Assembly: GCA_014378465.1 (NCBI GenBank)
Contig: JACMNQ010000021.1
Span: 4,898 to 68,897 of the forward strand
DNA length: 64,000 bases
Direction: 5' to 3'
Origin: Oligoflexia bacterium
Lineage (GTDB): Bacteria; Bdellovibrionota; UBA1018
Position numbers and translations under genes: made by a program. The notes beneath the pieces were generated by a model that searched no databases, was not told the DNA's origin, and was given only the letters and a program-made list of their open reading frames with translations. Shown piece after piece: positions 2,340-53,617 of the stretch (within the stretch, counting starts at the first letter, position 1; each line of letters opens with the position of its first letter).

Positions 2340-3110
2340 TCACTTCTTTTCCCGTCTCAGGAACACCGAAAGCTTTTCCTGAAGAAAGAAGGGGTTGATG
2401 CCTTCCTGAATTCCGATCACACCCTGCTTGATCACTTCACGCGAAACGGTATTCTGCTGCGCACGCCTCTTGAGCTTGGTGCCGATCGGGATGAGAATGA
2501 GATTGGACAGTGCGACTCCGTAAACGGTCGCGACGAATGCGACCGCGATCCCTTCTCCGATTTTCGCCGGCTCATTGAGCAGAGTCATCACGTGAATCAG
2601 GCCCAGCACGGCGCCGATGATGCCGATGGTAGGCGCGTAGCCTCCCGCCGCTTCGAAAACCTTCGCGGCCTGGACATCTTTTTCGTAGCCAAGCTCAATT
2701 TCGGCATCGATGATTTCGCGGATTGCATTGGCATCAAAACCGTCCACCACATGCTTGAGGCATTTTTTGAGCAGAGGATCAGAAACCTTGGAAATCTGAG
2801 AATCTACCGCCAAAAGGCCTTCTTTTCGGGCGACAGTGGCGATTTCTCCGATCTCAGAAACGAGAGTGTCACACTGAACCATCTCCTGTCTGAAGACACT
2901 GGGAATGGATCTGAAGGCATGCATCACTTCTTCCATGGGAAAGGAAACCAGGACAGCACCGAGAGTTCCGCCGAGCACGATCAGCGCTGCAGTCCCCTGA
3001 AGAATCTGACCCAGGGTTCCACCTTCGAGTAATTGTCCGCCCAGTACCGCAGCGACTCCGATGACGAGTCCAAGAATAGACGCCAGATCGATCATAGGAT
3101 TTCCCTGCAT
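2340..3110 (-). CDS. motA: Flagellar motor stator protein MotA
   Basis: Motifs AALIVLGGTLGA, ARKEGLLA, GGYAPTIGIIGAVLGLI and AFVATVYGV. Directly upstream of motB. Confidence 0.93.
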   Translation of the reverse strand: MQGNPMIDLASILGLVIGVAAVLGGQLLEGGTLGQILQGTAALIVLGGTLGAVLVSFPMEEVMHAFRSIPSVFRQEMVQCDTLVSEIGEIATVARKEGLLAVDSQISKVSDPLLKKCLKHVVDGFDANAIREIIDAEIELGYEKDVQAAKVFEAAGGYAPTIGIIGAVLGLIHVMTLLNEPAKIGEGIAVAFVATVYGVALSNLILIPIGTKLKRRAQQNTVSREVIKQGVIGIQEGINPFFLQEKLSVFLRREKK

Positions 3111-3156
3111 AGAGATTTAGTGTAACCTCAAAAGGATACGGAGCACTAGGTGTCAA

Positions 3157-4599
3157 ATGACGGATTTTCTTTCACCCCAAGTTCACGTGCGTGGACAATC
3201 TCACTTTGATGCCCAAGCCAGCCTGAAGCTGAAGCTCCTGTCGACACTGGTTGACCTTGCAATCATCGCGATCGTTTATTTTTTGACATCGGGAGCCCTG
3301 GGAAGATTTCCAATCCCGACTCTGGGTGAAGGCGCTCTGGTATTCGGACTGGGTGCACTGGTCCGCTCGCTCCTGCAGTTCTTCACCGGAGCCAGTCCCG
3401 GACAGCATGCGTGGAAGCTCCGTCTGAGGCGCGCGCCCGGAGAATCACCCGAATCGCTTGGAGAATTTCTCCACTCACAGGTTCGAGTCTGCGAGCGCAC
3501 TGGAACTCCCGAGATCATCAAGGCTTCGCTCATCAGTGGAGTTCTCCTTCTGTCAGCCTGCACTCTCGGCTGGGTCACACTTCTCAACCATCCCCTCACG
3601 ATGGCGGCCTCGGGAATCCAACTCCCCGTCTTCGTGCCCAGTGAGCTTACCGGGGGCAAGAAAAGTCCGGTGCCTCAGGACGAAAAGGGCCCGGGTTCCA
3701 GCTGGGCGGTGATGCCGTTTTATTACAGCAATGGCGCCTGGCCCCTCCAGTTCGCAGGGCATCCGGTCTTCTACGTCGCGCCTTACGAAAAAGGACCGCC
3801 CACGCACTTTCTCGGAAGAATCATCGCTCGCTGGGACATGCCGGACACGAAACTCACGATTCAGGGGCCGATCACTCCGGCGCGCGGGAGCCCGAGGAAG
3901 ATCTGGGAATCCTGCATGAAACAAGCGATGAGCTGCCTGAAACTCCGCAAGGAAGGGCTCTCGCGCGCGGTTGAAGAAATGAAGGCTCTGAAACTCAAGC
4001 ATTGGAACGTCCGTTGGTTTCGAGTGGACAACCCACTCATCCCTGAAGACGAGAGACCTGAAGGCATCTACATTTCCGCTGAGAATGAAACGCGCGCTCA
4101 GGACCGCATGATCCTGATCAATGAAAAGGGCACTCAACAGGCTTTCATCCTCGATCGCCCTTCATCCGAGGGCGAAGGACCGAGTGCCGAACGCAGTCGT
4201 GCCGCTCAACATCTTTTTGAGCAGGCCATGGGCTCACAACGGGTCACCAATGAACTCGACACCGGACGCGCCTGGATCAACCGGATGTTGGCGGATGTGA
4301 AAATGAGCCCGGCCATCGCGGGACTCTCCGATTCAGAATTCGTGACGAATATCGCCAAAACTCAGGCACTTCTGCTGTCTAAAATTTCCGTGGAGCCCAA
4401 AGTTCTGGATGCCTACTATCATCTCGGGGGCACCGCTCTCGTCCTTGCGAGACGTGCCAACAAGGCCAAGAATGCGGAATGGAGTTCGGCCGCCAAGATC
4501 CTTCTGCAAAGCGCTTATCATTATGCTCAGGACATTTCTCCCGACGATCCGAGAACGCGCCAACTCGAATCTTCGTGGGTCGAAGTGAAAAACTACTGA
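3157..4599 (+). CDS. Membrane protein with RDD-like N-terminal domain and large soluble C-terminal domain
   Basis: 480-aa ORF. LVDLAII...GASPGQHAWKLRLRR resembles the RDD family, followed by a further TM helix and a helical C-terminus. Divergent from motA. Confidence 0.55.
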   Translation: MTDFLSPQVHVRGQSHFDAQASLKLKLLSTLVDLAIIAIVYFLTSGALGRFPIPTLGEGALVFGLGALVRSLLQFFTGASPGQHAWKLRLRRAPGESPESLGEFLHSQVRVCERTGTPEIIKASLISGVLLLSACTLGWVTLLNHPLTMAASGIQLPVFVPSELTGGKKSPVPQDEKGPGSSWAVMPFYYSNGAWPLQFAGHPVFYVAPYEKGPPTHFLGRIIARWDMPDTKLTIQGPITPARGSPRKIWESCMKQAMSCLKLRKEGLSRAVEEMKALKLKHWNVRWFRVDNPLIPEDERPEGIYISAENETRAQDRMILINEKGTQQAFILDRPSSEGEGPSAERSRAAQHLFEQAMGSQRVTNELDTGRAWINRMLADVKMSPAIAGLSDSEFVTNIAKTQALLLSKISVEPKVLDAYYHLGGTALVLARRANKAKNAEWSSAAKILLQSAYHYAQDISPDDPRTRQLESSWVEVKNY

Positions 4600-4777
4600 A
4601 GCTCCTTTCGTTTGCGTTTCTCTCTTTCCGTCAAAAAAATGGCCGTTCACTCCTGAAGCTGAGTTGAAAATGAAACCAATTGAGCTGCAGACGGCTCCAT
4701 TTGCAGCTGAAGCGAGCCGGTTGAGAACGACACACCTGCCTGAATCCTGAAAACCTCTGTAAGATCAAGAATAGCCC

Positions 4778-4805
4778 TCATCTCTGACACTTCATCATCC
4801 GATAG
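4778..4805 (+). promoter_or_regulatory. Candidate sigma28 promoter (weak -35)
   Basis: TCATC-N15-TCCGATAG, about 45 nt upstream of the TTG start at 4849. Confidence 0.3.
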
Positions 4806-4848
4806 GTCTCAGGCAGTCGGGGCACTTTCAGTGCGGGAGGATTCAGAG

Positions 4849-5934
4849 TTGAAAATCATCGACCAGCCACAAAAAAATTTCACGCGGAGCGAGACACTGA
4901 CTTCAGTGAACTCAGCATTTATCTTTTCATTCCCGCTCCCGGGTCTGCTCATCGCCCTGCTCACGTGCCTCTTCACAGGGTGCTTTCAGCCTCCTGCTGG
5001 CAGTGGTGCCGCAGTGTCTGCCTCGAGCTCCGCTCCTCAACCCACGCTCACCCCAGCACCCGGCCCCATGGCGGTGAAGATCATTTTCAAAGCCGATGGC
5101 AGCTCCTCGATCGGGAGCTTCTATGACTCTGAAATTGATTCCGGCACTCAGGTTGCGATCGCCAAAAAACTCTTTCCAGTCGATGGAACGAACAATCCCA
5201 TCGCCACGGGCGGACCCGGCTCATCGGGTTGGCCGGCCTGGCTCACCACCGTGCGTGTCGGATTGACGGGAACCACGCGAACCGTGGTAGCTGACCAAAA
5301 GCCCAATTGCGCAAGATTCGCCGATGCCACGACCACCCCCTGCGCGATCGGACCCGGAGGAGTTGCCGTGAACTGCAATGGTCCTGCCGGTTACCTTCGA
5401 GTCAGTGAAGTGGACTGCGGGAACACATTGACAAAAGGCACGGGCAGCGAAGCGGACCCGGTCTACATCCGAGTGACTTTCAGCGATCAGGTCGCGAATC
5501 TCGCCGCGCACGAAAACATCATGGCGGTTCTTGAATATGCCGCTGCCTCAATCAACCCTCCGCCGTCGGACCCGACCGCCTGCTTCACTGGAGGACTGTT
5601 CACTCCCGGCAATACCAATTGCAGTGATCAGACGTGGAACGTCTACCTCAAGAAGCTGGGAAACACGGCCGCGGCCAATCCTTTTCTCATGCTCATCCCT
5701 CCCGCGTACTCCTACCTGCGGCCGCTCTCCGTCAGCAGTGCTGAATCTGTCGGGGCCGGGGTGGCGTCCAAGCAGATCTTTCTGCCCCTCGCGTCGAATC
5801 CCGGACTCAGAGTCCTGCAGATCTCAAGAACCAATGCGACTTCGTCCTACACTTACAGTGGAGTGACTTGTCCGTCCAACTCACCCCTTTGCCTGGGCAT
5901 GGTCCTCTATTCTCTGACTCTCTACAGGATGTGA
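4849..5934 (+). CDS. Hypothetical lipoprotein (cluster gene 1), Cys-containing
   Basis: ORF-track start is 4831; TTG at 4849 is preferred because GGAGG lies just upstream. Lipobox LFTG-C followed by an Ala/Ser/Pro tether. Confidence 0.75.
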   Translation: MKIIDQPQKNFTRSETLTSVNSAFIFSFPLPGLLIALLTCLFTGCFQPPAGSGAAVSASSSAPQPTLTPAPGPMAVKIIFKADGSSSIGSFYDSEIDSGTQVAIAKKLFPVDGTNNPIATGGPGSSGWPAWLTTVRVGLTGTTRTVVADQKPNCARFADATTTPCAIGPGGVAVNCNGPAGYLRVSEVDCGNTLTKGTGSEADPVYIRVTFSDQVANLAAHENIMAVLEYAAASINPPPSDPTACFTGGLFTPGNTNCSDQTWNVYLKKLGNTAAANPFLMLIPPAYSYLRPLSVSSAESVGAGVASKQIFLPLASNPGLRVLQISRTNATSSYTYSGVTCPSNSPLCLGMVLYSLTLYRM

Positions 5935-5939
5935 ACGGA

Positions 5940-8900
5940 ATGAGACTGCGCGACTTTCATCACAACCCGATTCGCCACTCAGTTCTGGTGAAAAAGCCTG
6001 AGGAGACTGCTCCACAGATTTCTCTCGCTCATTCGGCGGTGATTTTGGTCGTCTGCGCCCTATTTTCCGGATGCATCGCGGACTCCAATGTGGTGAGAAA
6101 ATCACGAAAACCCGGCTCTGTCGTCGTTCCGGATGCTTCGATGGAACTGGAAGATGAAGCTCAGCCGGGAGTGAAGATCTCCTTCAATCACTCCAACTTC
6201 TATACTCTCACTCACCCGAACTCGGAAGGGTGTGCAGGCGACGCGCGTCTTTTCACGCACTACCTGACTGCGGACTCGAGCGGAGCGGCAACCCAGTTTT
6301 CAGTGAGCAGTTCGAACTCCAGTGAAACTTACAAACCCACGTTTTTGAAGAACGTCGCAGTGGATCTGACGGACTCCAATGCGAACGTGCCTTCGAATCA
6401 AGCCTACACCTGCTCTTATGGGAGTCAGCCTTCGGTTGCCCCACCGTCGAGCTGCTCCACTTTTGACTACGGCGCCATCGGTGGGATCCCGACTTCGCTC
6501 GGTGGCTCGATCCTCACGATCGGGGGCAATGGGACGAATGATCGGTATTCACCCGCCGCAAGCTGTTCAGCGTATTCCCTGTCTGATCCACTTTCACTGC
6601 CTCAGTACTGTTCGAGCTCGATCTACGCACTCGGGGTGGACTCACTTTCGTCGGGTGAAGCGGGCACCGACCTTGCGCCGAATCTGAGCACTTCAGACGG
6701 ACACTCAATTTCAACCTGGGCGAATCTCACCACGACGTCGACGATAACTCCGTCGTCAGTCCCGCTCGGGGCCGTGGGCTCAGCCATCACGTACGATCCT
6801 GGCGATCAAAAAGTGCTTCTTTTTGGCGGTGCTTCGCCTCTGCTGGCTTCAGACCCGACGGATACCCGAACTTACGCGGGCTCTGACACGGTCGATACAT
6901 GGACGTATGATGTCAAGACTCAGAGCTGGCTCAGAGGCAATCCCACGCCTTTCGCGAACAACATCATCTCCACACTCTATGACATCACACCGACCACTTT
7001 CACCCCCGCCGAAACTTCGGTCTACCTGGGCAAAGCAATGGGAGCACGAGCGCTTTTCGGCTACGCAGCCGTCCCCAATTCCGCACTCTCCAAACTGACG
7101 ACGACTGGCATTCTCGCCGACGCAAACGTCGACAAGACGGAAAGAATAGTCTCGGTGGGAGGCTTCACCGGGAGCGGCGTCATCCAGGGAACATACCGCT
7201 TCAATCCCACTTTTGGTCCTGACTGGGTGGATATCTCAAGTACTGGAGCTTCGATCGTCCATTGGCTCGACAGCTACCACACTCAGCTCATGAGCAATAC
7301 GGATCCAACGAGTCGCTTTCAACCGGCCTATCCTATCCCGGCTCCGACGCCATCGCCGACCTATATTCCGCAGTCGTATTCCTTCGGCAGCGTTCCGACC
7401 TTGACCGGTTCCGCAGGCCAGCAAGTAGGCTCCATCCTCAATGCAGGCGGGTTTGAATTCCTTTTACCCACGATCCCTCTACCCCACACTTTCGCAGCCC
7501 CGACCGACGGAAAAATGACTCGTCTGGACCGCAGAGTCGCAACCACCGAAGGGTTTTCCGCAGTGCCGAACACGCCCCTGACCGGCGTTTCGCTCGCACC
7601 GGTACGCTGGACAGCCCTCAACACGAGCGCCTCGCCAGTCGATTGGGTCGGCGGAGTGCAGGCGGTTCCAGGCTTCTCCAAAACGAAAAATGATTTTGCT
7701 TATTTTGGCGGGAGCTATTGTCAGGATTATCTGACGAGCACTTCCGGATCGACGACCTGCTTCGCTTCGAGTTCGAAATATTATCAGATGGGTGCTGCAC
7801 CGGGCACTCCGACTGTGAGCGGGGCCGCTCTTGACATCACCTACTACACGGGAGGTGCAATGCCTGCCACTGACCCCGGAAAACGCGCTGGAATGGCGGT
7901 CGCTCGAGGACTTGACCCGACCGGAAAAGTCATCATCGTCGCCTGGGGCGGGATGAATCAACTTGCTTCGACCTCACCCGACAACTCGATCTGGGTCGCC
8001 TATGATTCGGCTGGCTCGCCTGTCTGGCGAGATTTCACGCCGGGAGGAGATCTGCCACTTCCGCTCGCGAACGGTCAACTGGTCTTCAGTCACACCACTG
8101 GAAAATTTTACCTCTTCGGCGGCTACCAGACGACTGGGACAATCAAGACCGTCGCGGACACTTATGAACTGAGCGTCGGCGGACCGTCGTGCACGAGTGG
8201 TGGCTGCGCTTTTACCTGGAAAAAGCTGACTTCAGAATTGACCTGCTACCCGAACTGTCCGTCGGCACGGCGCTCGCACCGCATGGTCGAAGTCAATTAC
8301 AACAACGAAGATCCGACTCACGAAGTGATTCCGGAATTTTACGCAGTCCCCGGCGCGGTCGATTGCACCGCCGCCAAGCCGTGTTCGTTTGGAATATTCA
8401 TGGAAGGCGGAAGCCCCGACGGCTTCGGCGTTCTCTCGGATCGCTGGATGTTTGATCCCACCGGAAACGGCGGAAAAGGTCACTGGCAGAGAGTCGACTC
8501 GTTTCCTCCTCGCAGGCTTGCGGCATTGGCGTCGGCAGACTACGAATCCTGGGACGGTTCGGGACCGGTCCACCGCGCCGTGCTCTTTGGAGGAGAAACT
8601 GCCCTTCAGAACTCAAGCCTGGGACTGCGTGCAATGGCAGACTCCGCCCACGTCGCACCGACTCTCGGCGACACGTACGTTTACGACTACGATGTGAAAA
8701 CCTGGCAGCGTGTGGAGCTTCTCGGCAAAGGTTACAATGGCGCCTTTCCTCCTGCCGCAGGTTATCCGACCGAAAGAGACGCGAGACAGGCCTACTCAAC
8801 GGCCGACCTCACCCACTTTGAGGAACTCTCCGCCTTCAGCCCTCCCGCGCTCAGTGGCGCGATGATGATCACCCGGACGATGTCGGGACCGCAGACTTCG

Positions 8901-10217
8901 ACTGTTCCTGCTCATAAACTTCGCATTCCGGAAGTTTTTCTCCTGGGCGGTCGACTGAAAGACGGAAAATTCAATACAGTCGACCAAGTTTACAAATTTT
9001 GCATGGGCAGTACGGGCGAAAGATCGAGTACGCCTGCTTCCAGCAACGACGCCAGCTGCGATGCTTATGATCCCAATACGAATCCCAACTCCACTTCCGG
9101 AAATCGTTCTTACGTGGGACGCTGGCTGAAGAAAAATACGATTGCCTGGGACGGCAGTCCGGGGCACGCCAATGCGCTCGGTTCCTACATGGGCGCGGGA
9201 GCTTATGATTCTTACAACGACTTGATCGTCTTCTACGGCGGTTTGACATCGGCAACTCTCCCGGTGGTGACCGCCGTCACGAACACTCCTCAACTCGCGA
9301 CGAATGATGACTACATCTATGAGTACACGCCGCCTTCGAAGTCTGGCGCCGGTGCTGGCGTGAACCAGGACAATCGAAACGGGGTCTGGACTTCGCGCCC
9401 CATGTGCAGCGGAGGAGCGGTCGCCGTCACTCCTCCCACTTTCCGGTATGGACATGGCCTGTCTTTTGACACGCTCAACAAACAGCTGATCATCGTGGGC
9501 GGCTATAATGGCGTGAACGGCACACTTCTCAAAAGTGCCAGCGGCGCTCCAGAAGTCTGGAGCGCCAAGCGCATCAACAATCCTCAGGCCGCGGGTTACA
9601 CCGATACAACTACCTGCTACGCGTGGGAACTCAAGACTTACTTCGGCAACGATCCTGCCACGGGCCCTCAGACGGGACTTGCTCATGCTGCCAGCGTGAT
9701 GATCCCGAGCACGGGTTACAATTCCGGCTTCTACACCTTTCAAGACGAGTTCTGCCCTGGAGCAGGCCCGGCTGCCTCACCTGATCCGAGCACGAGCAAA
9801 CTCTTCGCGGGCGGAGCTTACCTCGACATTGATCGTTCGCAGCTCGGGCCCCATGAGAACCTGCTGCTTCACTTGACTTACATCCCGATGGGAACGCAAA
9901 GTCAGAAACCTGACGGATCACTCTACTCTCAGGCTGAAACTGCAGTCCTTCGCGTTCATCTGCTCAAGAGCGGGTCGACGGAAACGGCAATCCGTTCGGG
10001 AATACAGCCTCGACATCTGATCTCCGCCGATCCTGCGATCCATCCCAAGATCGTGCAGACACTTCACATCGTCGCGCCTCCGACAGGCTCCGTGCGCCAG
10101 GATCAGATCGTCATCCCTCTCACGGCTGACCCGAACATCGACCGCATCCGAATCGAGCGCGTTTCCGGCTCGGCTGTACTCATCGACGCCACCCTGATTC
10201 GCATGGGTTACCGCTGA
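5940..10217 (+). CDS. Very large lipoprotein with multiple Kelch-like beta-propeller blades (cluster gene 2)
   Basis: ATG at 5940, 5 nt after the previous stop. Lipobox LFSG-C. At least 10 Kelch-type motifs (KVLLFGG..DTWTYD..SW, KFYLFGG..DTYEL, RAVLFGG..DTYVYD..TW, RYGHGLSFD..LIIVGG). Confidence 0.8.
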   Translation: MRLRDFHHNPIRHSVLVKKPEETAPQISLAHSAVILVVCALFSGCIADSNVVRKSRKPGSVVVPDASMELEDEAQPGVKISFNHSNFYTLTHPNSEGCAGDARLFTHYLTADSSGAATQFSVSSSNSSETYKPTFLKNVAVDLTDSNANVPSNQAYTCSYGSQPSVAPPSSCSTFDYGAIGGIPTSLGGSILTIGGNGTNDRYSPAASCSAYSLSDPLSLPQYCSSSIYALGVDSLSSGEAGTDLAPNLSTSDGHSISTWANLTTTSTITPSSVPLGAVGSAITYDPGDQKVLLFGGASPLLASDPTDTRTYAGSDTVDTWTYDVKTQSWLRGNPTPFANNIISTLYDITPTTFTPAETSVYLGKAMGARALFGYAAVPNSALSKLTTTGILADANVDKTERIVSVGGFTGSGVIQGTYRFNPTFGPDWVDISSTGASIVHWLDSYHTQLMSNTDPTSRFQPAYPIPAPTPSPTYIPQSYSFGSVPTLTGSAGQQVGSILNAGGFEFLLPTIPLPHTFAAPTDGKMTRLDRRVATTEGFSAVPNTPLTGVSLAPVRWTALNTSASPVDWVGGVQAVPGFSKTKNDFAYFGGSYCQDYLTSTSGSTTCFASSSKYYQMGAAPGTPTVSGAALDITYYTGGAMPATDPGKRAGMAVARGLDPTGKVIIVAWGGMNQLASTSPDNSIWVAYDSAGSPVWRDFTPGGDLPLPLANGQLVFSHTTGKFYLFGGYQTTGTIKTVADTYELSVGGPSCTSGGCAFTWKKLTSELTCYPNCPSARRSHRMVEVNYNNEDPTHEVIPEFYAVPGAVDCTAAKPCSFGIFMEGGSPDGFGVLSDRWMFDPTGNGGKGHWQRVDSFPPRRLAALASADYESWDGSGPVHRAVLFGGETALQNSSLGLRAMADSAHVAPTLGDTYVYDYDVKTWQRVELLGKGYNGAFPPAAGYPTERDARQAYSTADLTHFEELSAFSPPALSGAMMITRTMSGPQTSTVPAHKLRIPEVFLLGGRLKDGKFNTVDQVYKFCMGSTGERSSTPASSNDASCDAYDPNTNPNSTSGNRSYVGRWLKKNTIAWDGSPGHANALGSYMGAGAYDSYNDLIVFYGGLTSATLPVVTAVTNTPQLATNDDYIYEYTPPSKSGAGAGVNQDNRNGVWTSRPMCSGGAVAVTPPTFRYGHGLSFDTLNKQLIIVGGYNGVNGTLLKSASGAPEVWSAKRINNPQAAGYTDTTTCYAWELKTYFGNDPATGPQTGLAHAASVMIPSTGYNSGFYTFQDEFCPGAGPAASPDPSTSKLFAGGAYLDIDRSQLGPHENLLLHLTYIPMGTQSQKPDGSLYSQAETAVLRVHLLKSGSTETAIRSGIQPRHLISADPAIHPKIVQTLHIVAPPTGSVRQDQIVIPLTADPNIDRIRIERVSGSAVLIDATLIRMGYR

Positions 10218-10338
10218 CACATTTTCAGAATTCGCCTGTGACGATTTTCTTCATGAATCTGCAGACTTGGATTGTCCAAGAATCAAGCACTGGCAAAAAG
10301 ATCTTCAGGACCTCAATTGTTCAGCTAAGCGTTTGTTC

Positions 10339-10366
10339 TCAATCCTTTTCTTGGTTCCACCGATAC
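10339..10366 (+). promoter_or_regulatory. Candidate sigma28 promoter
   Basis: TCAAT-N15-ACCGATAC, about 190 nt upstream of 10559. Confidence 0.4.
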
Positions 10367-10558
10367 GCCCTTGGAGAGAGTGTCGAAGAACCTGACAGTT
10401 GAAAAAGAGTTTTTCGCATTCGATTTTGCCTGAAGTGTCGGATTTCACAGGACTCTTGATGGATTGCATGCCCCTTGCAACTCAGGAGCGGTGGGAACTT
10501 ACGGGACTCGGTCAAAGTGAGATGATCAAAGCAAGATGATGAAAGCGAGACGACGAGA

Positions 10559-12514
10559 GTGAGCAGTACCCTTCGAAAAAACGCTGCAAACATCTTCAGA
10601 CCAGGATCCAGGCTCGCCTTGATCTCCCTGAGTCTTTTCGCATTTGCAGCGCTTCAGTTCGGTTGCACGAACGGAACGATGGGCAAACTCACTTCAAAAA
10701 CCACAGAAGGACTGGCCGCAAGCACCCCGGGTGGCGCCAGCTCCGGCGACGGCTCCCTGCTTTCACTCACGCGAGTGATTCGTTCGAGCGCAACTCCGGA
10801 TACCAGTTTTGATCTCGTCGGCGATGGAAGCGGCTCGATCGGGCAACTCTGCGTGAGCACGACAGGAGGTGCGGGAAACACTGGCGCCAGCACCTGCGTC
10901 TGCGCCTATGACTACATCCGTGCAGATGGTTCGCATGAAAGTTTTGAAGCCGACACGATCTACCGCGAGAACAATCTCATCCGCTGCAGCACCGCTTCGA
11001 TTCCGGCCGGTCTTGGCTACGTCAAAGTGGCCGTGAAACTCGTCAACTCGGGTGACACTTCGAACCAGATCACTTTCAATTTTCTCAGCGGCGGCTCCGT
11101 CCTGAACCTGGGCGATGCTTCCAGCTTTTCGGATGTGAAACGGTACCAGTGCAAAGACGCCGTCTACATTCAGAACATGTTCACGAGTGATTCGATGTAC
11201 GACCCGATGCAGTCGGAAGATCCGGCCATCAGCTACCCTCTGAATTTCTACACGCTGAACATTGCCAAATCGATCGTCAAATTCGCCGGCCTCGACGCGA
11301 ACAAACCCGTGAACGGTTCGGGTTGGATCTGCCCCACCACTCCGAACGATCCAAGCGCCGGCATGAACCTGAACGTGTTCAGTGTGATGCCTCTCGGAGG
11401 CTCAGACTACTCCATTTATCCCGTCGCTCCCGGTGGCGCCTATGACCGCAGCGGTTTTCTTCTCGCCAAAAAGGCCTCCGGCGTCTTCAACGTGCCGGTC
11501 AACGCTTTCATCGCGCCCAACATCAACACGACTTCAGGGGGAGGCTCCGAGCCGCCGCTCGGCTTCGGTGCGGCACCGATCCCGGTCGGGGACGGAACCA
11601 CTGAAAGGTGTCCTGACTCCTCCGTTTCAATTCCCTCAGGCTATCACTGGGTGAAGGTCTGGCTCTTCCGCGCTTCGCTCGAAGATCGCAAGGCGAAGAA
11701 AAGCGCCGCGTTCACGAGTCTGGGTCCGCTCTTCTGCAACCCGGGCTATTGGCCAGGTACGGTGGCACCAGCCACTCCGGAATATGTTTTCAAGGATTGT
11801 CATAATTCAGCGACCCTCAGCGCGACCAATTCACTTTCGGCACGAGTTCTCCAGAATCATGCCTGTGTGAATCCGAGCCCAGTCGGCGCGATTGGCAGCA
11901 AGAGCGCAGGAACAACCGTTGCGGGTGGAACCACCGACTGCAGTGACCCGGTAGCCGGTTGTGTGCAGAGATCCGGTTACAGCCAATATGCGCTGGGGAC
12001 TGATATCTGGAAGTACGGCTATACGAATACCCAGGGCCTCGCAGCCCTCCCAGACGCCCCCGGACGCGACCGTTTCAGCGATTGTGCCAATAGCCCGGAT
12101 CCCATCGGGCTCTGCTCGAGCGGCACGACGGGATCCAACGGAACTTCCGATTTTTCCGTCCCGAAAGACGGCAACCCGACGCTGGTCAGCATCGATGGCG
12201 GCGTTTCCCGTTACGATTACATGTACGTCGTGTCTCCTCCGAGCATCAACGCGTTGGACTTCAAGAACGCGACTTCCAACAGCCTCCCCTACACTCCACT
12301 TCGCTATCATTCGTCAAAAGACTGTCAGGGAGACCCCGATCATCCGCGCTTTGCAGGAGACTGTTCTCCAAGTAAACTCATTCGGTATGGAGTCAAGTTT
12401 CACGACATCGCGACCAATGGTGACGAAGCAGTCGGCACGGTCACTTCTCCCGGCAACAACGGTCGCCTTCCGGTATTCCCGGTCTGCGCGCTCCAGAAGG
12501 GTACGGGGCCCTGA
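10559..12514 (+). CDS. Hypothetical Cys-rich lipoprotein (cluster gene 3)
   Basis: 651-aa ORF with lipobox LQFG-C. Gly/Ser/Thr/Cys-rich; no family recognised. Confidence 0.75.
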   Translation: MSSTLRKNAANIFRPGSRLALISLSLFAFAALQFGCTNGTMGKLTSKTTEGLAASTPGGASSGDGSLLSLTRVIRSSATPDTSFDLVGDGSGSIGQLCVSTTGGAGNTGASTCVCAYDYIRADGSHESFEADTIYRENNLIRCSTASIPAGLGYVKVAVKLVNSGDTSNQITFNFLSGGSVLNLGDASSFSDVKRYQCKDAVYIQNMFTSDSMYDPMQSEDPAISYPLNFYTLNIAKSIVKFAGLDANKPVNGSGWICPTTPNDPSAGMNLNVFSVMPLGGSDYSIYPVAPGGAYDRSGFLLAKKASGVFNVPVNAFIAPNINTTSGGGSEPPLGFGAAPIPVGDGTTERCPDSSVSIPSGYHWVKVWLFRASLEDRKAKKSAAFTSLGPLFCNPGYWPGTVAPATPEYVFKDCHNSATLSATNSLSARVLQNHACVNPSPVGAIGSKSAGTTVAGGTTDCSDPVAGCVQRSGYSQYALGTDIWKYGYTNTQGLAALPDAPGRDRFSDCANSPDPIGLCSSGTTGSNGTSDFSVPKDGNPTLVSIDGGVSRYDYMYVVSPPSINALDFKNATSNSLPYTPLRYHSSKDCQGDPDHPRFAGDCSPSKLIRYGVKFHDIATNGDEAVGTVTSPGNNGRLPVFPVCALQKGTGP

Positions 12515-12516
12515 TC

Positions 12517-14919
12517 ATGAAATTCATGTTTGAATCCTCAAGAAAATTTCAGCCCGTGCTCCTGCTTCTGGGCGCCTTCTCACTTGCAGGTGGAACCGGT
12601 TGCACGAACTCCAACCTCACGAATCTGACGCGCAAGGCGCAGAAGACCGCAGCCATCGCCGCCGCAGCGGGCGATACCTACAAGATCACCAACGTGAGCG
12701 TCGCCGCTCCGGCCACAGGCGCCACGGGTAGCAGCGCACAGTTGACCACCGTGTATTTCAGCGCCTCCGATCCGGCGAACTCCATTGCCAACGGTTGCTC
12801 CGGCAGCAGTAGTGCGCAGAACCTCAAGTCCTGCACCTGTGAATTCAAATGGGATGAAATCAATTCGACGACGGGCAGCAATGTTCGGATCCCGAGGTCC
12901 GTCACGAGTTCGGTGCTCAACGTTCAGGCGAGCATCGTGACCTGCAATGCACCCCTGGCTTATGCGAGCGAAATCCCCGAAGGAACGATCATCACGGTCA
13001 ACGTGTTCCCAAGCGGCAACAACAACGGAAACTTTTCAGTCACTCCTTTCAAGTACACCAAGCAGGGAGTCGTCGTCGGCGGCAGCTTTCAGGACGCGGA
13101 AGGAAAATCCTTCGACAATATCCTTCGCTACTCCTGCTTTGAGCAGAACTACCGTGGCCTCACGATGAGGTCCAAGAAACTGGCCTACCCCAAATCCAGC
13201 GGAGATTCCACGGTCAACCTGCTTTACGCCAACCAGTATTGCACCGGAAAAACCGCGGGCGCCGCAGGCTGCGAATCCACACCGCCCGCCGGACTCTCGG
13301 CGCAGTCCTACTACTACAACCTTTACATTCGAAACACGGATCGCGGGAACATCAACTCCGAGAACCAGCGTTACAAATGCCCTCTGGTGAAGGAAAGTCT
13401 TTATTCAGTGCTCGGCAGCTCCGGCACTCAGAATGATTTCTACCCCCTCGACACGAGCTTCGCCCTCGCCCTCAGTCCCACTCCGAACTACAACGTCGGA
13501 GTCGAAGCATTCAGCAAGCTCGGAATCGGCACCGATCCATCAACCACCGGCTCCTCCTGCTATCCAGCTGCCAACGGTACCGGGACAGGAGACGCAAGTG
13601 GAGCGGGTGCCGGCTCGCTCGTTCACAGTTGCCTCGGATTCGCCGCGAAACCGGCTTCAGACGGAACCTGCCCGCTCATCCGCCTTCCGAACGGAACCCA
13701 GCAGAACACCTACCGCCTTCGCCGCTTCGTCGCTCTCTATCCTGCCCTTTTCGATACGGATGGAAAAATGATCGCGGAATTTCAGGCGACTGACTCCATT
13801 TACGTTCTTGACCGTCCCGTCAGGTACACGGGCATGGACATCACCAAGCCTTACACGATGCGCGGACCGAAGCCCTGCCCGTTCGCTTACTTTGACAAAG
13901 CGGCCGTCACCCGCGGACCCACGCCGGATCCGCTCTACCCGGATGGCATGCCTCAGTATGTTTCGACGAACAACCCTTCCTGGAACAACACCAACATCGA
14001 TGGAATTGAATTTCCCAACCAGGACATCAGCACTGCCACGCAGCAGTCCTGCTCCGCGGTGCTGCCGCTCCTGAGCAGTGACCGCAACACACTGAGCCTG
14101 GGTACGGTTCACACGAGCAATCCTTACCTGAAGCGTGTCTTCGTTCGGCCCGTGCAGGCCTGGGCACCTCACTACGAAGAGGATACGGACTTTCAGGCCT
14201 GCGCTCCGCAGTCCAACCCCCTCAAAGATCCCCCTCTTCACTTCGCGAAGGATTCGAGCACGGGAAATGTTTCCTGGTGCGCGGAAGTCTATCCCTCTCA
14301 GAATCCCAACGTCACCGCTCTCGATGCAAGAGACACGAGCAGCAACTTCCCTGGCAAAGTCATCTCCTACACTTCTCATGTCGCCAAGAACTCCATCAGC
14401 GCCGCGTGCACACCCACCACCTTGAGCGACAGAGTTCCGGCAACTCCCGGCTACCCATCTGATCCAGCGGGTGCGAGATCGTGTACCGTGAGTGCTTCGG
14501 TCGACTTCGGTGTCGCTCATCATCCAAAAAATCTCCTTCTTGAGCAGATCCCCGTCTCTTCCTACGGCTGCCTGAACGGAAGCACGGCCGAAGGAGCGCT
14601 CTGTAATTTCTGCGCAGACCAGACCTGCGATCGCACCGTTTCAAGCAACAATCTCACCAGCCAGTTTCCGCTTCTGGCGAGACCCAGCCAGGTTGAAACC
14701 GCCATTTCGTCTGACACGACCTATGGCTGCATCATGACCTACGATGGCGCCGGCGGCATCAAGTCCGGCAAGCGGTCTCCGACACAAGGCTGCTGCGGGC
14801 CCTCGGTCAAAGTATGGACGGGTACCGGCAATTCGAGCCCGGAACTTTCCAATAAAACCGCTCACCTTGAGCCCGACCCGAACTCGACTGGTTCACTTTG
14901 TGCGCAGCCCGGGTATTAA
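12517..14919 (+). CDS. Hypothetical Cys-rich lipoprotein, paralogue of gene 3 (cluster gene 4)
   Basis: 800-aa ORF starting 2 nt after the previous stop. Lipobox-like GGTG-C. Shares collinear motifs with 10559-12514. Confidence 0.75.
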   Translation: MKFMFESSRKFQPVLLLLGAFSLAGGTGCTNSNLTNLTRKAQKTAAIAAAAGDTYKITNVSVAAPATGATGSSAQLTTVYFSASDPANSIANGCSGSSSAQNLKSCTCEFKWDEINSTTGSNVRIPRSVTSSVLNVQASIVTCNAPLAYASEIPEGTIITVNVFPSGNNNGNFSVTPFKYTKQGVVVGGSFQDAEGKSFDNILRYSCFEQNYRGLTMRSKKLAYPKSSGDSTVNLLYANQYCTGKTAGAAGCESTPPAGLSAQSYYYNLYIRNTDRGNINSENQRYKCPLVKESLYSVLGSSGTQNDFYPLDTSFALALSPTPNYNVGVEAFSKLGIGTDPSTTGSSCYPAANGTGTGDASGAGAGSLVHSCLGFAAKPASDGTCPLIRLPNGTQQNTYRLRRFVALYPALFDTDGKMIAEFQATDSIYVLDRPVRYTGMDITKPYTMRGPKPCPFAYFDKAAVTRGPTPDPLYPDGMPQYVSTNNPSWNNTNIDGIEFPNQDISTATQQSCSAVLPLLSSDRNTLSLGTVHTSNPYLKRVFVRPVQAWAPHYEEDTDFQACAPQSNPLKDPPLHFAKDSSTGNVSWCAEVYPSQNPNVTALDARDTSSNFPGKVISYTSHVAKNSISAACTPTTLSDRVPATPGYPSDPAGARSCTVSASVDFGVAHHPKNLLLEQIPVSSYGCLNGSTAEGALCNFCADQTCDRTVSSNNLTSQFPLLARPSQVETAISSDTTYGCIMTYDGAGGIKSGKRSPTQGCCGPSVKVWTGTGNSSPELSNKTAHLEPDPNSTGSLCAQPGY

Positions 14920-14935
14920 GCGCAAAATCGTCCTC

Positions 14936-15919
14936 ATGCTCGACTCCGCCAGTCGCCTGGACCTCGCCCTCCTTCATGAATTGCGAAAGCAGAATCCAGA
15001 CCTCTCCCGTGCGAAGCTCAAGGAGTGGTTCAAGAGCGAGTCGATCACTTACCGAGGCCGTGCGGCCTCTCCCTCCGAGGAACTTTCAGCCGGGGATCAC
15101 GTCCTTGATATTCCAGAAGCCCTCGAAAACGCGCTCGCTCCTGACACGGCCCAAGCTTCCCCTCGCGGCAGCTTTCTTGAGATTCTCCACGAAGACGAAA
15201 ACCTTCTCGCGTTGAACAAGGATTCAGGAATTCCGTCGGTGCCTCATGCCATACACGAAACCGATACGGCGGTGAGCTCCGCTCTTGCGCACTTTCCCGG
15301 TCTTGAGCAAGTTGGCCGCAGAGGCTTCGAACCCGGCATTCTCCACCGGCTTGATACCGGAACCAGTGGCGTGCTCCTGTTTGCAAAAAACCAGCCGACC
15401 TTTGAAACTCTCCAGTCTCTCTGGAAAACTCCGAGAGTCATCAAAACCTACCGCGCGCTCGTTCAGAGCCAGAGCGCCGACCCTTCACCTGAGACCTGGC
15501 AGTTGCCCAAGGTCATTGCCACGCCGCTGGCCCATGATCCAAAATCTTCAAAAAAAATGATCGCTCTTTCCCGAGAGGATTCGGAAGAACGAGGACTCTA
15601 CCGCGGAAAACCGTTGCCGGCCTTGACACGAATCAGGCAGCTTTCTCGCCTCGAAGGCCGAAACCCTGACTCCTGGGATCTCGAGATTGAAATTGAAACG
15701 GGAGTGATGCACCAGATCCGCTGCCATCTCGCGAGCGTCGGGCTTCCCATTCTGGGGGACTCACTTTACCGCGGCGGGATCTCACCCCGGCTCTGGCTTC
15801 ACGCGTGGAAACTCAAGGTGGATTCGCTCGAGATCACAGCCCCCCTGCCGGCCCACTGGCCGGGCGCCGCTCCTTCGCAGAAAGATCACTCCAGGACAGA
15901 CCTCAAGGAACAGCCATGA
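14936..15919 (+). CDS. RluA/RluD-family RNA pseudouridine synthase with S4-like N-terminus
   Basis: Catalytic motif GILHRLDTGTSGVLLFAK, plus KTYRALV, TGVMHQIRCHLASVGLPILGDSLY and LHAWKL. ATG 14936 preferred over ORF start 14744, which overlaps the upstream gene. Confidence 0.9.
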   Translation: MLDSASRLDLALLHELRKQNPDLSRAKLKEWFKSESITYRGRAASPSEELSAGDHVLDIPEALENALAPDTAQASPRGSFLEILHEDENLLALNKDSGIPSVPHAIHETDTAVSSALAHFPGLEQVGRRGFEPGILHRLDTGTSGVLLFAKNQPTFETLQSLWKTPRVIKTYRALVQSQSADPSPETWQLPKVIATPLAHDPKSSKKMIALSREDSEERGLYRGKPLPALTRIRQLSRLEGRNPDSWDLEIEIETGVMHQIRCHLASVGLPILGDSLYRGGISPRLWLHAWKLKVDSLEITAPLPAHWPGAAPSQKDHSRTDLKEQP

Positions 15920-17268
15920 AAACAAAATTCAATCTGCTCACTTTTTCGGCACAAATTTTTGCACTGACCGCGATCAGCTGCTCAACCAATCCCTTTCGGA
16001 GCCCCTCTTCGGAAGGCAACCTGCCCGTCTACGCGGATTGCGACACGCAATTCTCGGTGATTCGCACGGACCCCGCCTGGCAGAAGGAACTTCTCTACAC
16101 GCCACCTTCCGAAATGAAGAAACGCCTTCAAAATCACCTCACCGACAAGAGGCATTGCGATCCGGCAGTGATTTCCCCTTTCATGAGCCGGCTCGAAGCG
16201 GAAACGAGAACTCGCCAGCAGGAAAACGTGGCTCACATTCGGGACGAGCTTTCGGCAATCGCGAAGTACCGTCCACCGCTACGCGAACTGAAACTCATCG
16301 AACAGCAGAGTCAATACTCACAAATCACCGATCCAGTCCCGGCATCTGAAAAGGCTGAGCTTGTGAGCCTGGGCACGCGCGCGGCCCGGGAGAGAAAAGC
16401 CGCGTGCACCTCAGTGGACGTCCGCGGCCCCATGCTCCAGCACATGAACAACCAGAAAGACGGCCCGTGGTGCTATGCCTATGCGGCTTCTGATCTCTTG
16501 AGCGTCGCTCTCGGAGAAAGAGTTTCCGTCTTTGACATCATCAACAATTACAACAATCGCCTGGAATACAAATTTCAGCAGATCGTTGGCGGCAAGGATG
16601 AAAGCGACCTCCATGGCGGGTCAGTCACCCGGGCCGCCACTCGAGCTTTGAAGAAAGGTCTCTGCCTGGAGTCAGACCTTCCCTCGCTCAAGGTCACGGA
16701 CTCCGAAGGCAAGACTTTGAAGGGTCTTCTGCAGCTGATTGACGAACGAAAAGTGACGGCCACGGACTTTTCCGACGAGTTGAATCAGATCCGGGAGCTG
16801 TTCCCCAACATCGAGGAGGAGGATTTCGAAAAAATCCTGAAGAAGTCAGGCCGTATGAAGCGAGTCGATCGTCTCGTGGACGCGAGCTGCAAGAAACGCA
16901 TCCACGTTGAAAAGGACTTCGCGGTCAGACGAGTGGATCTGGAAAAGGATCTTCACGATGAGGGTGAGCGAATGATGCAGGAACTTGATCAGCTGCTGAA
17001 TCAACAGCAGATCGTCGCGATTGACTATGATGCCACGATATTACATGAGGCTTACAATCACGACCGGATCAGGCGCCATGCCTCCAGCATCGTGGCCCGA
17101 ACCTGGAACGAAAAGGCTCAAAGCTGCGACTATCTGGTCCGAAACTCGTGGGGATCGGGCTGCCTGGAGTATGATCCTGGCCTCGGCTGTGAAAAAGGAA
17201 ACGTCTGGATTTCCGCTGACATGATTCGCAGAACGGTCTATCGGTTGACGACGATTCATTCGAACTGA
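15916..17268 (+). CDS. Papain-like (C1 family) cysteine peptidase, lipoprotein
   Basis: ATGA overlap with the upstream stop. Lipobox TAIS-C. Catalytic elements Q-x5-C (NQKDGPWCYAYA), His (HASSIVA) and RNSWG. Confidence 0.8.
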   Translation: MKTKFNLLTFSAQIFALTAISCSTNPFRSPSSEGNLPVYADCDTQFSVIRTDPAWQKELLYTPPSEMKKRLQNHLTDKRHCDPAVISPFMSRLEAETRTRQQENVAHIRDELSAIAKYRPPLRELKLIEQQSQYSQITDPVPASEKAELVSLGTRAARERKAACTSVDVRGPMLQHMNNQKDGPWCYAYAASDLLSVALGERVSVFDIINNYNNRLEYKFQQIVGGKDESDLHGGSVTRAATRALKKGLCLESDLPSLKVTDSEGKTLKGLLQLIDERKVTATDFSDELNQIRELFPNIEEEDFEKILKKSGRMKRVDRLVDASCKKRIHVEKDFAVRRVDLEKDLHDEGERMMQELDQLLNQQQIVAIDYDATILHEAYNHDRIRRHASSIVARTWNEKAQSCDYLVRNSWGSGCLEYDPGLGCEKGNVWISADMIRRTVYRLTTIHSN

Positions 17269-23912: not shown

Positions 23913-24320
23913 TCAGCCTCGGGTTTTGATGTTCTGTTCGGCAAGGTAGCTGCGGATGAATTCGCGGTGATCGCCCTGAATCTCGACGAGTCCACAGCCC
24001 GGCGGAACCCCTGACCTCACAGGTACCTCCACGAGGTAGGTGCCGCCCGAGCCGCACCTGTTCTTGAGCTTCTTGCAGAGATCCTTGAGAAAAAGTTCCT
24101 GTTTCGGAAGTCCGTCGATGACCGTCACGGTCTTCCCGCCGCGCCCGGATTTTTCGATCCGGATGAGTGCCGTGTAGTTGGAAAGTTCCTTCTTTTTGGC
24201 TTTCACGGCCGCTGCCTCATCCTGAACTTTCAGACGCGCGACTTCTTCCGGCTTCTGCTCCGGAAGCTTGACCCTGGCCTCGGCAAGTTTTCCAAAAGGA
24301 TTGTTGAAACTGCCGGACAT
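23913..24320 (-). CDS. yciH: SUI1/eIF1-like translation initiation factor (YciH)
   Basis: IRIEKSGRGGKTVTVIDGL...LKNRCGSGGT...EIQGDHR. Confidence 0.9.
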   Translation of the reverse strand: MSGSFNNPFGKLAEARVKLPEQKPEEVARLKVQDEAAAVKAKKKELSNYTALIRIEKSGRGGKTVTVIDGLPKQELFLKDLCKKLKNRCGSGGTYLVEVPVRSGVPPGCGLVEIQGDHREFIRSYLAEQNIKTRG

Positions 24321-25840
24321 TACAGAAAACGCTCGGTGAATTCGCCGTTCTGGTAACTGAGCAGCTTCTTCTGGCCGTCGACTTCCGTCTCGACGTTCAC
24401 GGGCCGCTTCCAGATCTCGGCCAGCGCCCGCATGGTCTCGCGTGCGTACTTGACGTCCAGGTCGAGCCCCTGATGCTTGTGCCAGAGGAGCAGCTCCCCT
24501 TTGTTGTGATGATTGCCATCCGTGACGTAGATCAGCGGTTGCCCCCGGTTCGTGAGCTGAAAAAGCAGTTTTTCCTTCACTTTTTTGAAATCACGGTCCG
24601 CGATTTCATACTGATTCGTCCGGCGGTTGAACTGGTACGTGTAGAGCTTGAAGCGCTCGACGAATTCTTCCGTGAGGTACTCGTCAATGAAGGTCACATC
24701 GTTGCAGACTTTTCTCACTTCAAAGATCTTCTTGCGGCCGAGGCCAAGTTCCTTGTTCCAGCGGTGCTTCACCATCATGTCGTCGCACTCGTCGTACTCC
24801 TTGCCGAACTTGCCGCGGTCCCAGCGGTCCTCGATGTCGCGGTAGAGTTCAATCCCGATCTTGTAAGGGTTGATCCGACCGGGTTGCATGACCAGGGTGC
24901 CCGCATGGTGATCCGCGAAATCGATGATCTCGGACGCCTTGAGCGCCTTCTGGGTCATGATCTTGGAATGCCAGTAGGAAGCCCAGCCTTCATTCATGAT
25001 CTTCGTCTGGCCCTGGGGAGCGAAGTAATAGGCCTCGTCGCGCACGATCGAGAGCACTTCGCGCTGCCAGTCTTCAAGCGGAGAATTCTCCAGGAGAAAA
25101 AGAAGGACATCTTTCTGAGGCTCAGGCGGATTCTTCCGCGCTTTCTGATTCTGGTCCTTCTGGCGCTGCTTCTGCTCTTCGACGAACTCAGCAGGATTGA
25201 TGTAAGCGTCCATGTACTGGCGAGTGATCTTGAGTTTGCCCACTTCTTCAGCCACTTCAGGCGGCTGCGTGACGGACTCCCGGTGATCAGGCTCATTGGA
25301 GCGCTTGCGCTCGACAAAGGGCAGAAACGGGTCAATCAGAGGTTCCAGAGTCAGACAGCGATCAATGAAATCCTCGACCACTTCCTGGCCATAGCGGTCC
25401 ATGTAATCGCGGATCTTGACGGCGTGATTGGCCATCGTGTCGAGCATCTTGCGGTTGGTTTTTGAGAACCAGTAGTTGTTCTTGAAGAAATCCACGTGCC
25501 CATACACATGAGCCATGACGGTCTTCTGATCAACGAAGTCATTGGCTTTCATGAGGTACGCGTAAGAGGGGTTGGTGTTGATCACCATTTCATAGATCTT
25601 CTGAAGCCCGTACTCATAACCCTTGGAGAGCTGGTCGTAATCCATGCCGAAGCGCCAGTGCGGATAACGCACCGGAAAGCCGCCAAAAGCGGCGAAAGCG
25701 TTGATCTGCTCGTGATCGACCATTTCAAAGATGGTGTCGAAGAAATCAAGGCCGTAGCCCTGAGCGTAGCCCCGGATCTCATCGCGAATCGCCACCAGCT
25801 CAGGAGTCAGATCACTGCTGTTGAAGCCGTAAGAGGACAT
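24320..25840 (-). CDS. spoVR: SpoVR/YcgB family protein
   Basis: Motifs RYPHWRFG, KIYEMVINTNP, HVYGHVDFFKNN, TKIMNEGWASYWH and NPYKIG. Confidence 0.92.
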   Translation of the reverse strand: MSSYGFNSSDLTPELVAIRDEIRGYAQGYGLDFFDTIFEMVDHEQINAFAAFGGFPVRYPHWRFGMDYDQLSKGYEYGLQKIYEMVINTNPSYAYLMKANDFVDQKTVMAHVYGHVDFFKNNYWFSKTNRKMLDTMANHAVKIRDYMDRYGQEVVEDFIDRCLTLEPLIDPFLPFVERKRSNEPDHRESVTQPPEVAEEVGKLKITRQYMDAYINPAEFVEEQKQRQKDQNQKARKNPPEPQKDVLLFLLENSPLEDWQREVLSIVRDEAYYFAPQGQTKIMNEGWASYWHSKIMTQKALKASEIIDFADHHAGTLVMQPGRINPYKIGIELYRDIEDRWDRGKFGKEYDECDDMMVKHRWNKELGLGRKKIFEVRKVCNDVTFIDEYLTEEFVERFKLYTYQFNRRTNQYEIADRDFKKVKEKLLFQLTNRGQPLIYVTDGNHHNKGELLLWHKHQGLDLDVKYARETMRALAEIWKRPVNVETEVDGQKKLLSYQNGEFTERFL

Positions 25841-25868
25841 GGTTCATTTACCTTTCCCGAGGCGCGAT

Positions 25869-26984: not shown

Positions 26985-27075
26985 TATAGTCCTTTGGCTT
27001 TCGCCAAAATAAATGGGATCTCTCGCACCTTCGCACTCTCGCGAAAGGGCAAAAGGCGCGAGAAATTCCCTATTT

Positions 27076-52155: not shown

Positions 52156-52197
52156 ATCCGAAAACCCTGAAATGACCCTACGAAAGAGAAGTAAAAA

Positions 52198-52943: not shown

Positions 52944-53079
52944 GATTGAACTGACAAGAATAACGCAGTAGCAGATCCAGCAAATAACAGCCGCATCATC
53001 GGCACCCATCCCCCTGGGTCAGTTGAGTGAAATAGGGTGGGTCAACTCAACTGCAATCGGCCACCCGAAGCGCGAGGAG

Positions 53080-53342: not shown

Positions 53343-53344
53343 GC

Positions 53345-53570: not shown

Positions 53571-53617
53571 AAAATTAAAAGGACTGCTCCGAAAGAAGCT
53601 GCCTTTTTTATTTTGTG

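Follow-up and report, generated by a model that had tools for sequence, protein, structure and literature searches.

The stretch of 64,000 nucleotides analyzed here (the window; contig JACMNQ010000021.1 of the Oligoflexia bacterium assembly GCA_014378465.1) carries four consecutive, co-oriented genes, P1 to P4, between positions 4849 and 14919 of the forward strand. In our reading, these four genes make up a lineage-specific envelope module that has not been described before and belongs to the uncultured class UBA1018, and we hold this reading, together with the assembly and function that it includes, with slightly less than even confidence. Each of the four is a genuine gene, for which dozens to hundreds of full-length homologues exist. 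P1 to P4 are kept together across an uncultured class and hence probably form one conserved envelope complex. No known system resembles them in sequence, in the fold of P4, or in architecture, and their newness is one by exclusion and not of function.

In our model, each product would be exported by the Sec pathway, lipidated at the lipobox cysteine, and probably delivered to the outer membrane. A flexible tether of 20 to 35 residues would then be followed by domains locked by conserved disulfides. P3 and P4 are the invariant core of the locus, P1 and P2 share an N- and C-terminal core, with a losable Kelch array inserted in P2, and the Kelch propellers may serve as an optional ligand- or partner-binding surface. 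The assembly of all four proteins into one stable heteromeric outer-membrane lipoprotein platform is, in our estimate, evenly balanced.

Four predicted lipoproteins in two pairs

P1 (4849 to 5934, + strand) encodes a predicted lipoprotein of 361 residues with the lipobox LFTG-C45, a Ser/Ala/Pro tether, and N- and C-domains; its start is a TTG at 4849 with GGAGG 7 to 8 nucleotides (nt) upstream, and the longest P1 open reading frame (ORF) begins at 4831. P2 (5940 to 10217, +) encodes a predicted lipoprotein of 1425 residues (lipobox LFSG-C45). Its parts, all on the + strand, are an N-domain (6075 to 6464; about residues 46 to 175) homologous to that of P1, a Kelch-type β-propeller array (6477 to 9704; about residues 180 to 1255; recognized with Pfam and Foldseek), and a C-terminal β-sandwich domain (9723 to 10205; residues 1262 to 1422) homologous to the C-domain of P1. 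P3 (10559 to 12514, +) encodes a probable lipoprotein of 651 residues (LQFG-C36), of which the N-terminal ~320 residues (nt 10559 to 11509) are homologous to P4 and the remainder is an orphan domain. P4 (12517 to 14919, +) encodes a predicted lipoprotein of 800 residues (GGTG-C29) with a tether of ~23 residues, an N-terminal module (nt 12529 to 13512), and a large orphan β-rich domain. P1 and P2 are separated by 5 nt (5935 to 5939) and P3 and P4 by 2 nt (12515 to 12516). The spacer between the pairs (10218 to 10558, 341 nt), a variable junction, holds no ORF, and a promoter and terminator scan of it performed no better than on shuffled sequences.

A PROSITE PS51257-like regular expression matches the lipoboxes of P1 (LFTGC), P2 (LFSGC), and P4 (GTGC). 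In the alignment of each of the four families, the lipobox Cys is either invariant or conserved at 90% or more, and the motif is present in 20/24, 97/120, 23/31, and 63/118 homologues across the four families, with a median Cys position of 24 to 29. In P1 and P2, this Cys is residue 45 when counted from the best-supported starts and residue 26 to 29 when counted from alternative GTG starts. P4 complies with the rule of a Cys at residue 15 to 35 and a Lys or Arg in the first seven residues (Cys 29, K2), and the Cys of P3 is residue 36. A low-complexity tether of 20 to 35 residues follows the lipobox Cys in each protein; residues 25 to 48 of the P4 model have a predicted local distance difference test (pLDDT) score below 50. 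The residues at +2 and +3 are conserved as well, C-T-N in the P3 and P4 families and C-A-A in most P2 homologues (C-I-A in P2 of the window). Since Asp is absent at +2 in all four proteins, they would be sorted to the outer membrane.

The proteins contain 1.4 to 3.2% Cys, 36 to 38% Gly, Ser, Thr, and Pro together, and few charged residues, compared to 0.3 to 0.9% Cys and 16 to 30% Gly, Ser, Thr, and Pro in cytoplasmic proteins of the window. In addition to the lipobox Cys, about 8 Cys in P1, 16 in P2, 13 in P3, and 21 in P4 are conserved at 90% or more in the family alignments, which is consistent with numerous disulfides. We infer lipidation, outer-membrane location, and disulfide bonding from the conserved Cys, the lipoboxes, and the paralogy described next.

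Plain BLASTP within the pairs is weak (E = 0.08 and 3e-4), and profile comparison is needed to decide on paralogy. With hhalign, P1 residues 33 to 157 align with P2 residues 33 to 175 (87%, E = 3.8e-6) and P1 residues 180 to 361 with P2 residues 1262 to 1422 (95.8%, E = 7e-9); furthermore, the hidden Markov model (HMM) of P1 matches the P2 ORF at E = 3e-10. P1 matches both ends of P2 and therefore corresponds to P2 minus its central ~1075 residues. Likewise, P3 residues 1 to 317 align with P4 residues 5 to 332 (97.9%, E = 4e-13). Across the pairs, hhalign gave no homology of P1/P2 to P3/P4 beyond the signal peptides.

A natural variant indicates how P2 is built. The P2 orthologue of a relative of genus JAMPXJ01 (L051:6781-7797; GCA_023701205.1) has only 338 residues, matches positions 9 to 154 and 1277 to 1445 of the P2 profile, fused in frame, and misses the entire Kelch array. 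The array is therefore an insert in the N- and C-terminal core and dispensable for retention of the operon. In Pfam, the Kelch scores of P2 stay below threshold (PF24681, 48.5 versus 50 bits; Kelch_4, 21.3 versus 21.6 bits). An AlphaFold2 (AF2) model of residues 226 to 1425 (pLDDT 73.5, predicted template modeling score [pTM] 0.77) has 129 Foldseek matches in the PDB at E < 0.001, and the top ones, which are to KLHDC2, LZTR1, YjhT/NanM, and dynein Kelch domains, are all Kelch (probability 1.0, E down to 6e-15). As judged from the predicted model, P2 is a tandem Kelch propeller protein. With KLHDC2, LZTR1, and NanM/YjhT it shares the propeller fold of the central ~1075 residues, the GG doublets, and Trp, the GG and W positions being invariant in the family alignment; in contrast to these proteins, the P2 array is very diverged, inserted inside a domain pair, predicted to be lipid anchored, Cys-rich, and losable. 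The "GG" doublets suggest about 12 blades, perhaps arranged as two six-bladed propellers that carry long insertions; self-alignment yields weak internal repeats only, and because the blades have diverged so far, their number is given here as an approximation. The last ~130 residues of the model are a separate β-sandwich common to P1, for which DSSP assigns seven strands and one short helix. P2 has at least 24 full-length homologues (35 to 46% identity), with further P2 genes in other relative loci. For P1, an exhaustive HMMER search of 1.84 billion proteins gave 118 cluster representatives (50% clustering), all of 75 to 428 residues.

P3 has 31 homologues, in which C36 is invariant and 12 to 13 more Cys are conserved; P4 has at least 181 homologues with 38 to 53% identity. 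The AF2 model of P4 (82 sequences; pLDDT 86.7, pTM 0.81) comprises β-sandwich N-terminal domains and a large β-rich body. Foldseek, which had been suggested as a check along with the first-pass annotation of this DNA, identified P2 as Kelch and found nothing at E < 0.001 for the P4 model in PDB and BFVD; partial matches of immunoglobulin (Ig)/FnIII- or cytokine-receptor-like type to the N-terminal part of P4 have E values of 0.016 or worse. P3 and P4 thus share an N-terminal module of ~320 residues that is Ig/FnIII-like and is followed by different orphan β-rich domains. The P4 orthologue of L051 is longer (953 residues), with an insert of ~170 residues.

In the P4 alignment, about 20 Cys, His575, His669, and His783, and several Asp, Glu, and Arg are invariant. 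It is imaginable that the four proteins are extracytoplasmic enzymes or a substrate-capture set for glycan or polymer processing, with a Kelch part as in NanM or galactose oxidase and a His/Asp/Glu metal site in P4. The invariant residues and the Foldseek matches to the Kelch mutarotase YjhT/NanM would fit this function, and a moderate, housekeeping-like conservation suits enzymes. However, no catalytic family was recognized by sequence or structure, the Kelch part is dispensable, and the locus has no transporter or TonB-dependent receptor, which makes an enzyme set quite unlikely.

Pfam, NCBIfam, PADLOC, and the PDB sequences contain no match to P1, P3, or P4. Scans across the families gave no Pfam, NCBIfam, or PDB match in any of 29 P3 members and no Pfam domain in the P4 homologues, and when the profiles of the four families were compared with PDB sequences, the only match was a marginal one to the Kelch of Muskelin. 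Every named homologue is a "hypothetical protein" from a Bdellovibrionota metagenome-assembled genome (MAG). Literature searches for Kelch lipoproteins of Bdellovibrio or of Myxococcus gliding turned up no relevant paper. PADLOC also matched none of the neighbors. The idea of a defense system was rejected. In uncultured lineages, envelope operons made up of orphan genes are frequent.

Much of what the first-pass annotation had read from the letters alone was correct: the coordinates of four co-oriented ORFs and the gaps of 5 and 2 nt are found in the ORF list, the lipoboxes and the Cys/Gly/Ser/Thr/Pro-rich composition are borne out by the regular expression, family conservation, and comparison with the neighbors, and the multi-blade Kelch-like array of one protein is that of P2 as seen with Foldseek on the model. 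Its pairs of internal homologues are confirmed by profile-profile comparison only. The statement that no named system has this architecture also held, with no characterized family for P1, P3, and P4 and only Kelch in P2.

Four outer-membrane lipoproteins in one complex are known from BamBCDE, of which BamB is a β-propeller. In contrast to these, P1 to P4 are 3 to 10 times larger, show no homology, have no bamA neighbor, are Cys-rich, and occur in one class, whereas the Bam lipoproteins are universal.

Gene order and distribution in class UBA1018

Gene order was determined by HMM scan in 52 loci, namely, the window, 3 GTDB genomes, 38 metagenome contigs, and 10 loci from exact protein look-up. 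P3 lies directly upstream of P4 in all 41 informative loci. P2 precedes P3 in 30 of 32 loci, and P1 precedes P2 in 24 of 24; an rluA gene follows P4 in 41 of 42 loci. Synteny, another point raised with the first-pass annotation, is thus nearly invariant for the order P1-P2-P3-P4-rluA. Among eight relatives whose genes have been called, P1 and P2 are never more than 15 nt apart and P3 and P4 never more than 32 nt, and the two coupled pairs are therefore a conserved property; the P2-P3 junction ranges from −4 to ~396 nt in relatives. Two loci (L012:4145-10247 and L015:1-7895) keep P3-P4-rluA with both P1 and P2 absent upstream, and P3-P4 is therefore the obligatory core. One locus (L004) has two tandem P1 copies.

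The same order could be had without any system if four independent lipoproteins were simply held together by the frozen gene order of a clade, and indeed the housekeeping neighbors rluA, ribonucleotide reductase (RNR), and motAB are equally syntenic. However, an identity between genera of 36 to 43% speaks for a long divergence, and yet the gaps within the pairs are ≤32 nt. Moreover, the pairs are paralogous, P1 and P2 were lost together, and all four proteins share an unusual composition. We therefore regard mere juxtaposition as unlikely.

Four relatives are taxonomically placed: L005 (MAG UBA1018), L007 (GCA_016786465.1), L051 (genus JAMPXJ01), and the magnetotactic MAG FG-1, which has a P3 homologue. 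UBA1018, GCA_016786465.1, and FG-1 are assigned to the GTDB class, order, and family UBA1018 (PMC13200544 supplement), and genus JAMPXJ01 presumably belongs to this class because FG-1 is stated to be close to it (PMC13200544). All relatives that can be placed therefore fall in class UBA1018, and none is a cultured predator. The NCBI labels on other matches ("Bacteriovoracaceae," "Oligoflexia," "Bdellovibrio sp.") were given by the submitters and are compatible with UBA1018. The restriction to Bdellovibrionota, which the first-pass annotation had considered for predatory ones, is thus supported and narrower than proposed. Class UBA1018, the sister group of Bacteriovoracia, has no cultured member. 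The cells of FG are small vibrios whose flagellum is 53 nm thick and whose anterior pole is a pointed "bottlenose" of 200 to 300 nm; UBA1018 carries Kil/Tad predation markers, and its members are putative predators (PMC13200544). The window sequence was found in a glacier metagenome run.

The median identities to the window proteins across the loci are 72% for RNR, 59% for MotA, 46% for RluA, 43% for P4, 40% for P2, 39% for MotB, 38% for P1, 36% for P3, and 34% for u480, a membrane protein encoded upstream of P1. P1 to P4 are conserved to their last residues, with no variable tip region. They evolve like ordinary, moderately constrained proteins, roughly at the rate of RluA and MotB and not like fast recognition tips, and a core structural complex fits this rate better than a fast-evolving recognition adhesin.

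These data bear on the role in prey recognition or invasion that the first-pass annotation had proposed, in which surface lipoproteins, perhaps located at the anterior pole, bind or breach the envelopes of prey. The phylum is one of predators, the bottlenose pole and the Kil/Tad markers would suit such an apparatus, Kelch propellers and Ig-like domains often serve in binding, and the family is confined to a clade. However, the proteins are not hypervariable, and their median identities of 36 to 43% reflect a divergence no faster than that of RluA and MotB. Scans with Pfam, NCBIfam, and PADLOC found no adhesin, toxin, or lytic domain, the Kelch array, which would be the likeliest part to bind prey, is dispensable in L051, and the locus lies in a housekeeping block and not among pilus, Tad, or secretion genes; such hints as the context gives are of proton-driven motors. 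The proposal was therefore not upheld, and an apparatus for prey contact is improbable.

Neighboring motor genes and possible function

Divergent flagellar stator genes lie upstream of the cluster (motB, 1397 to 2320, and motA, 2340 to 3110, both on the − strand; Pfam MotB_plug+OmpA and MotA_N+MotA_ExbB). This arrangement, motAB(-flbD), occurs in the window and in no fewer than 14 relatives and is the commonest neighbor of the cluster, and MotA of the window scores 280 bits with the NCBIfam model of the flagellar motor protein (cut-off, 237). In relatives, flbD lies between motA and the gene for an RDD-like membrane protein; in the window, the gap between motA and u480 (3110 to 3157) is only 46 nt, and a tblastn search across the window found no copy of flbD.

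One could thus think of a flagellar accessory that serves an unusually thick, sheathed flagellum as a scaffold in the periplasm or outer membrane or as part of its sheath. FlgP, MotX/MotY, and PflA/B are motor accessory envelope proteins or rings of sheathed or high-torque flagella, and P1 to P4 resemble them in being envelope proteins encoded near stator genes; the frequent adjacency to flbD-motA-motB, the score of MotA, and the thick flagellum of FG-1 cells are in line with this. However, P1 to P4 have no sequence similarity to FlgP, MotX/MotY, PflA/B, or any other known motor accessory, transcription is divergent, the neighborhood is not universal (the adjacency is lost in L006, L034, and L050), a membrane-protein gene lies in between at most loci, and there are no other flagellar genes close by. 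A flagellar accessory is therefore very unlikely.

A set resembling another proton-driven stator was found in L006 (positions 4661 to 8511), where genes for a GltG-like FHA protein, a TolQ-like protein, and two ExbD/TolR-like proteins lie on the same strand, 165 nt upstream of P1. The GltG-like protein matches NF033760 at E = 3e-62, below the equivalog cut-off, and its AgmX/PglI C-terminal domain is above cut-off. TolQ, two TolR (AglRQS), and GltG are the core of the gliding machinery of Myxococcus and Bdellovibrio. It is suggestive that, after a rearrangement, the cluster is again next to a proton-driven stator. Further upstream in L006 are genes for an OmpL47-type multi-barrel protein and a PilZ+GYF protein. 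The idea that P1 acts as a TonB analogue in L006 was rejected because P1 has no TonB_C domain.

The Agl-Glt machinery of Myxococcus xanthus with CglB and GltK offers the closest comparison to such a setting. Like the inferred location of P1 to P4, it involves outer-membrane lipoproteins, and it occurs in a predatory, formerly "deltaproteobacterial" lineage. CglB is a gliding adhesin and an outer-membrane lipoprotein that is Cys-rich (17/416 residues), disulfide stabilized, and built with a β-sandwich N-domain (PMC9946355); the Cys-rich composition is common to CglB and P1 to P4, and the motor set in L006 is adjacent to them. Bdellovibrio is without the outer parts GltH/I/J/K of Myxococcus (PMC3169522), and lineage-specific outer parts are therefore to be expected. 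In contrast, there is no sequence or fold similarity: NCBIfam gliding models and Pfam revealed no GltA-K or CglB homology and no VWA/MIDAS domain in P1 to P4, although the same library recognizes the GltG-like neighbor in L006, and the locus has no GltA/B/H-type barrels.

Within the envelope module that we favor, P1 to P4 might be a constitutive structural or adhesive platform that works with a proton-driven envelope motor, either of gliding (Agl/Glt) or flagellar type; this is a doubtful possibility, and a prey-specific recognition device is less likely. It is a more speculative thought, and one to which we assign a very low probability, that a surface machine driven by protons has in the four proteins an outer-membrane end specific to the class. 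The P3-P4 core, together with P1-P2 and its Kelch propellers, would then be an adhesive platform that receives force, replacing GltH/GltK/CglB in Agl-Glt motors of UBA1018 or building the bottlenose pole.

Several points weigh against the envelope module and its link to motors. The lipobox of P3 (LQFGC) misses the PS51257-like expression, at position −3 (Q) only, the +2 sorting rule has not been validated for this phylum, and contact among the four proteins is putative. The whole neighborhood, including rluA and the class II RNR, is syntenic, and the conserved order is therefore partly lineage inertia. The link to motility comes from the neighborhood only; motAB is transcribed divergently from P1 to P4 and is absent beside the cluster in L006, L034 (which has dihydrofolate reductase and desaturase genes upstream), and L050, and the gliding-motor set was found in L006 only, not in the window or in any other fetched flank. 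For RNA, no run is listed for the window, and the tiny SOLiD metatranscriptome runs of one relative (same sample/study) hold none of the sequence. The conserved His, Asp, and Glu of P4 could equally mark the active site of an enzyme.

Cells of UBA1018 have a striking morphology: the anterior pole is pointed, the flagellum is very thick, and some members have magnetosomes. A module that is kept throughout UBA1018 is a strong candidate for an envelope structure that defines the lineage. Of its proteins, three are orphans, and one of these has a confidently predicted fold without structural neighbor. The module is a source of new protein folds; P1, the Kelch-less P2, and the full P2 are a natural domain-insertion/deletion series. 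If the link to motors is true, P1 to P4 would be the outer-membrane parts that are still missing from the gliding or attachment machines of Bdellovibrio-like bacteria, and if they are part of a surface machine, they would add new folds for bacterial focal adhesion or prey docking.

Flanking genes and other features of the window

The gene u480 (3157 to 4599, +) encodes a membrane protein of 480 residues with a weakly RDD-like N terminus (E = 0.005, below cut-off). It lies upstream of P1 in 15 of the 19 informative loci and is a frequent co-oriented neighbor and possible accessory, not part of the core. On the other side, the gene for the RluA-type pseudouridine synthase (14936 to 15919, +; Pfam PseudoU_synth_2) starts 17 nt past the P4 stop. 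Its longest ORF (14744 to 15919, +) shares 176 nt with the end of P4, and the ATG at 14936 is the likely start. The rluA gene of relatives frequently overlaps the stop codon of P4, and co-transcription of P4 and rluA is therefore possible; rluA is a near-universal neighbor that may be co-transcribed and is not counted as a member of the system.

The cluster lies in a housekeeping region with class II RNR, Ddl, SpoVR-DUF444-PrkA, PmbA, SecA, and transfer-messenger RNA (tmRNA), and because of this context, cargo of a mobile element was rejected as an explanation. The SpoVR-DUF444-PrkA triad (24320 to 29223, −) recurs near the cluster in L001, L007, L008, and L051, and the tmRNA gene is at 45569 to 45926 (+; Rfam RF00023, 186.7 bits).

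Between rluA and the RNR gene is an ORF of 487 residues (15805 to 17268, +) that contains 10 Cys and, following an internal Met, a lipobox-like TAIS-C. It has no Pfam match and was found in none of the related loci, and it therefore looks like a window-specific insertion; its stretch GPWCYAYAASD resembles papain-like active sites. A secreted protein of 342 residues and no known family (76 to 1104, −) is encoded next to motB, and homologues are found beside motB in L001 and L003 with an S8 peptidase gene adjacent. Finally, positions 50677 to 59958 are likely a mobile or defense island, with a GC content that falls to 47.5 to 50% at 54 to 60 kb, that encodes a protein with a Mu-type transposase C-terminal domain (50677 to 52155), a DUF2779 protein (56915 to 58948), and a restriction endonuclease of the MvaI/BcnI family (58945 to 59958).

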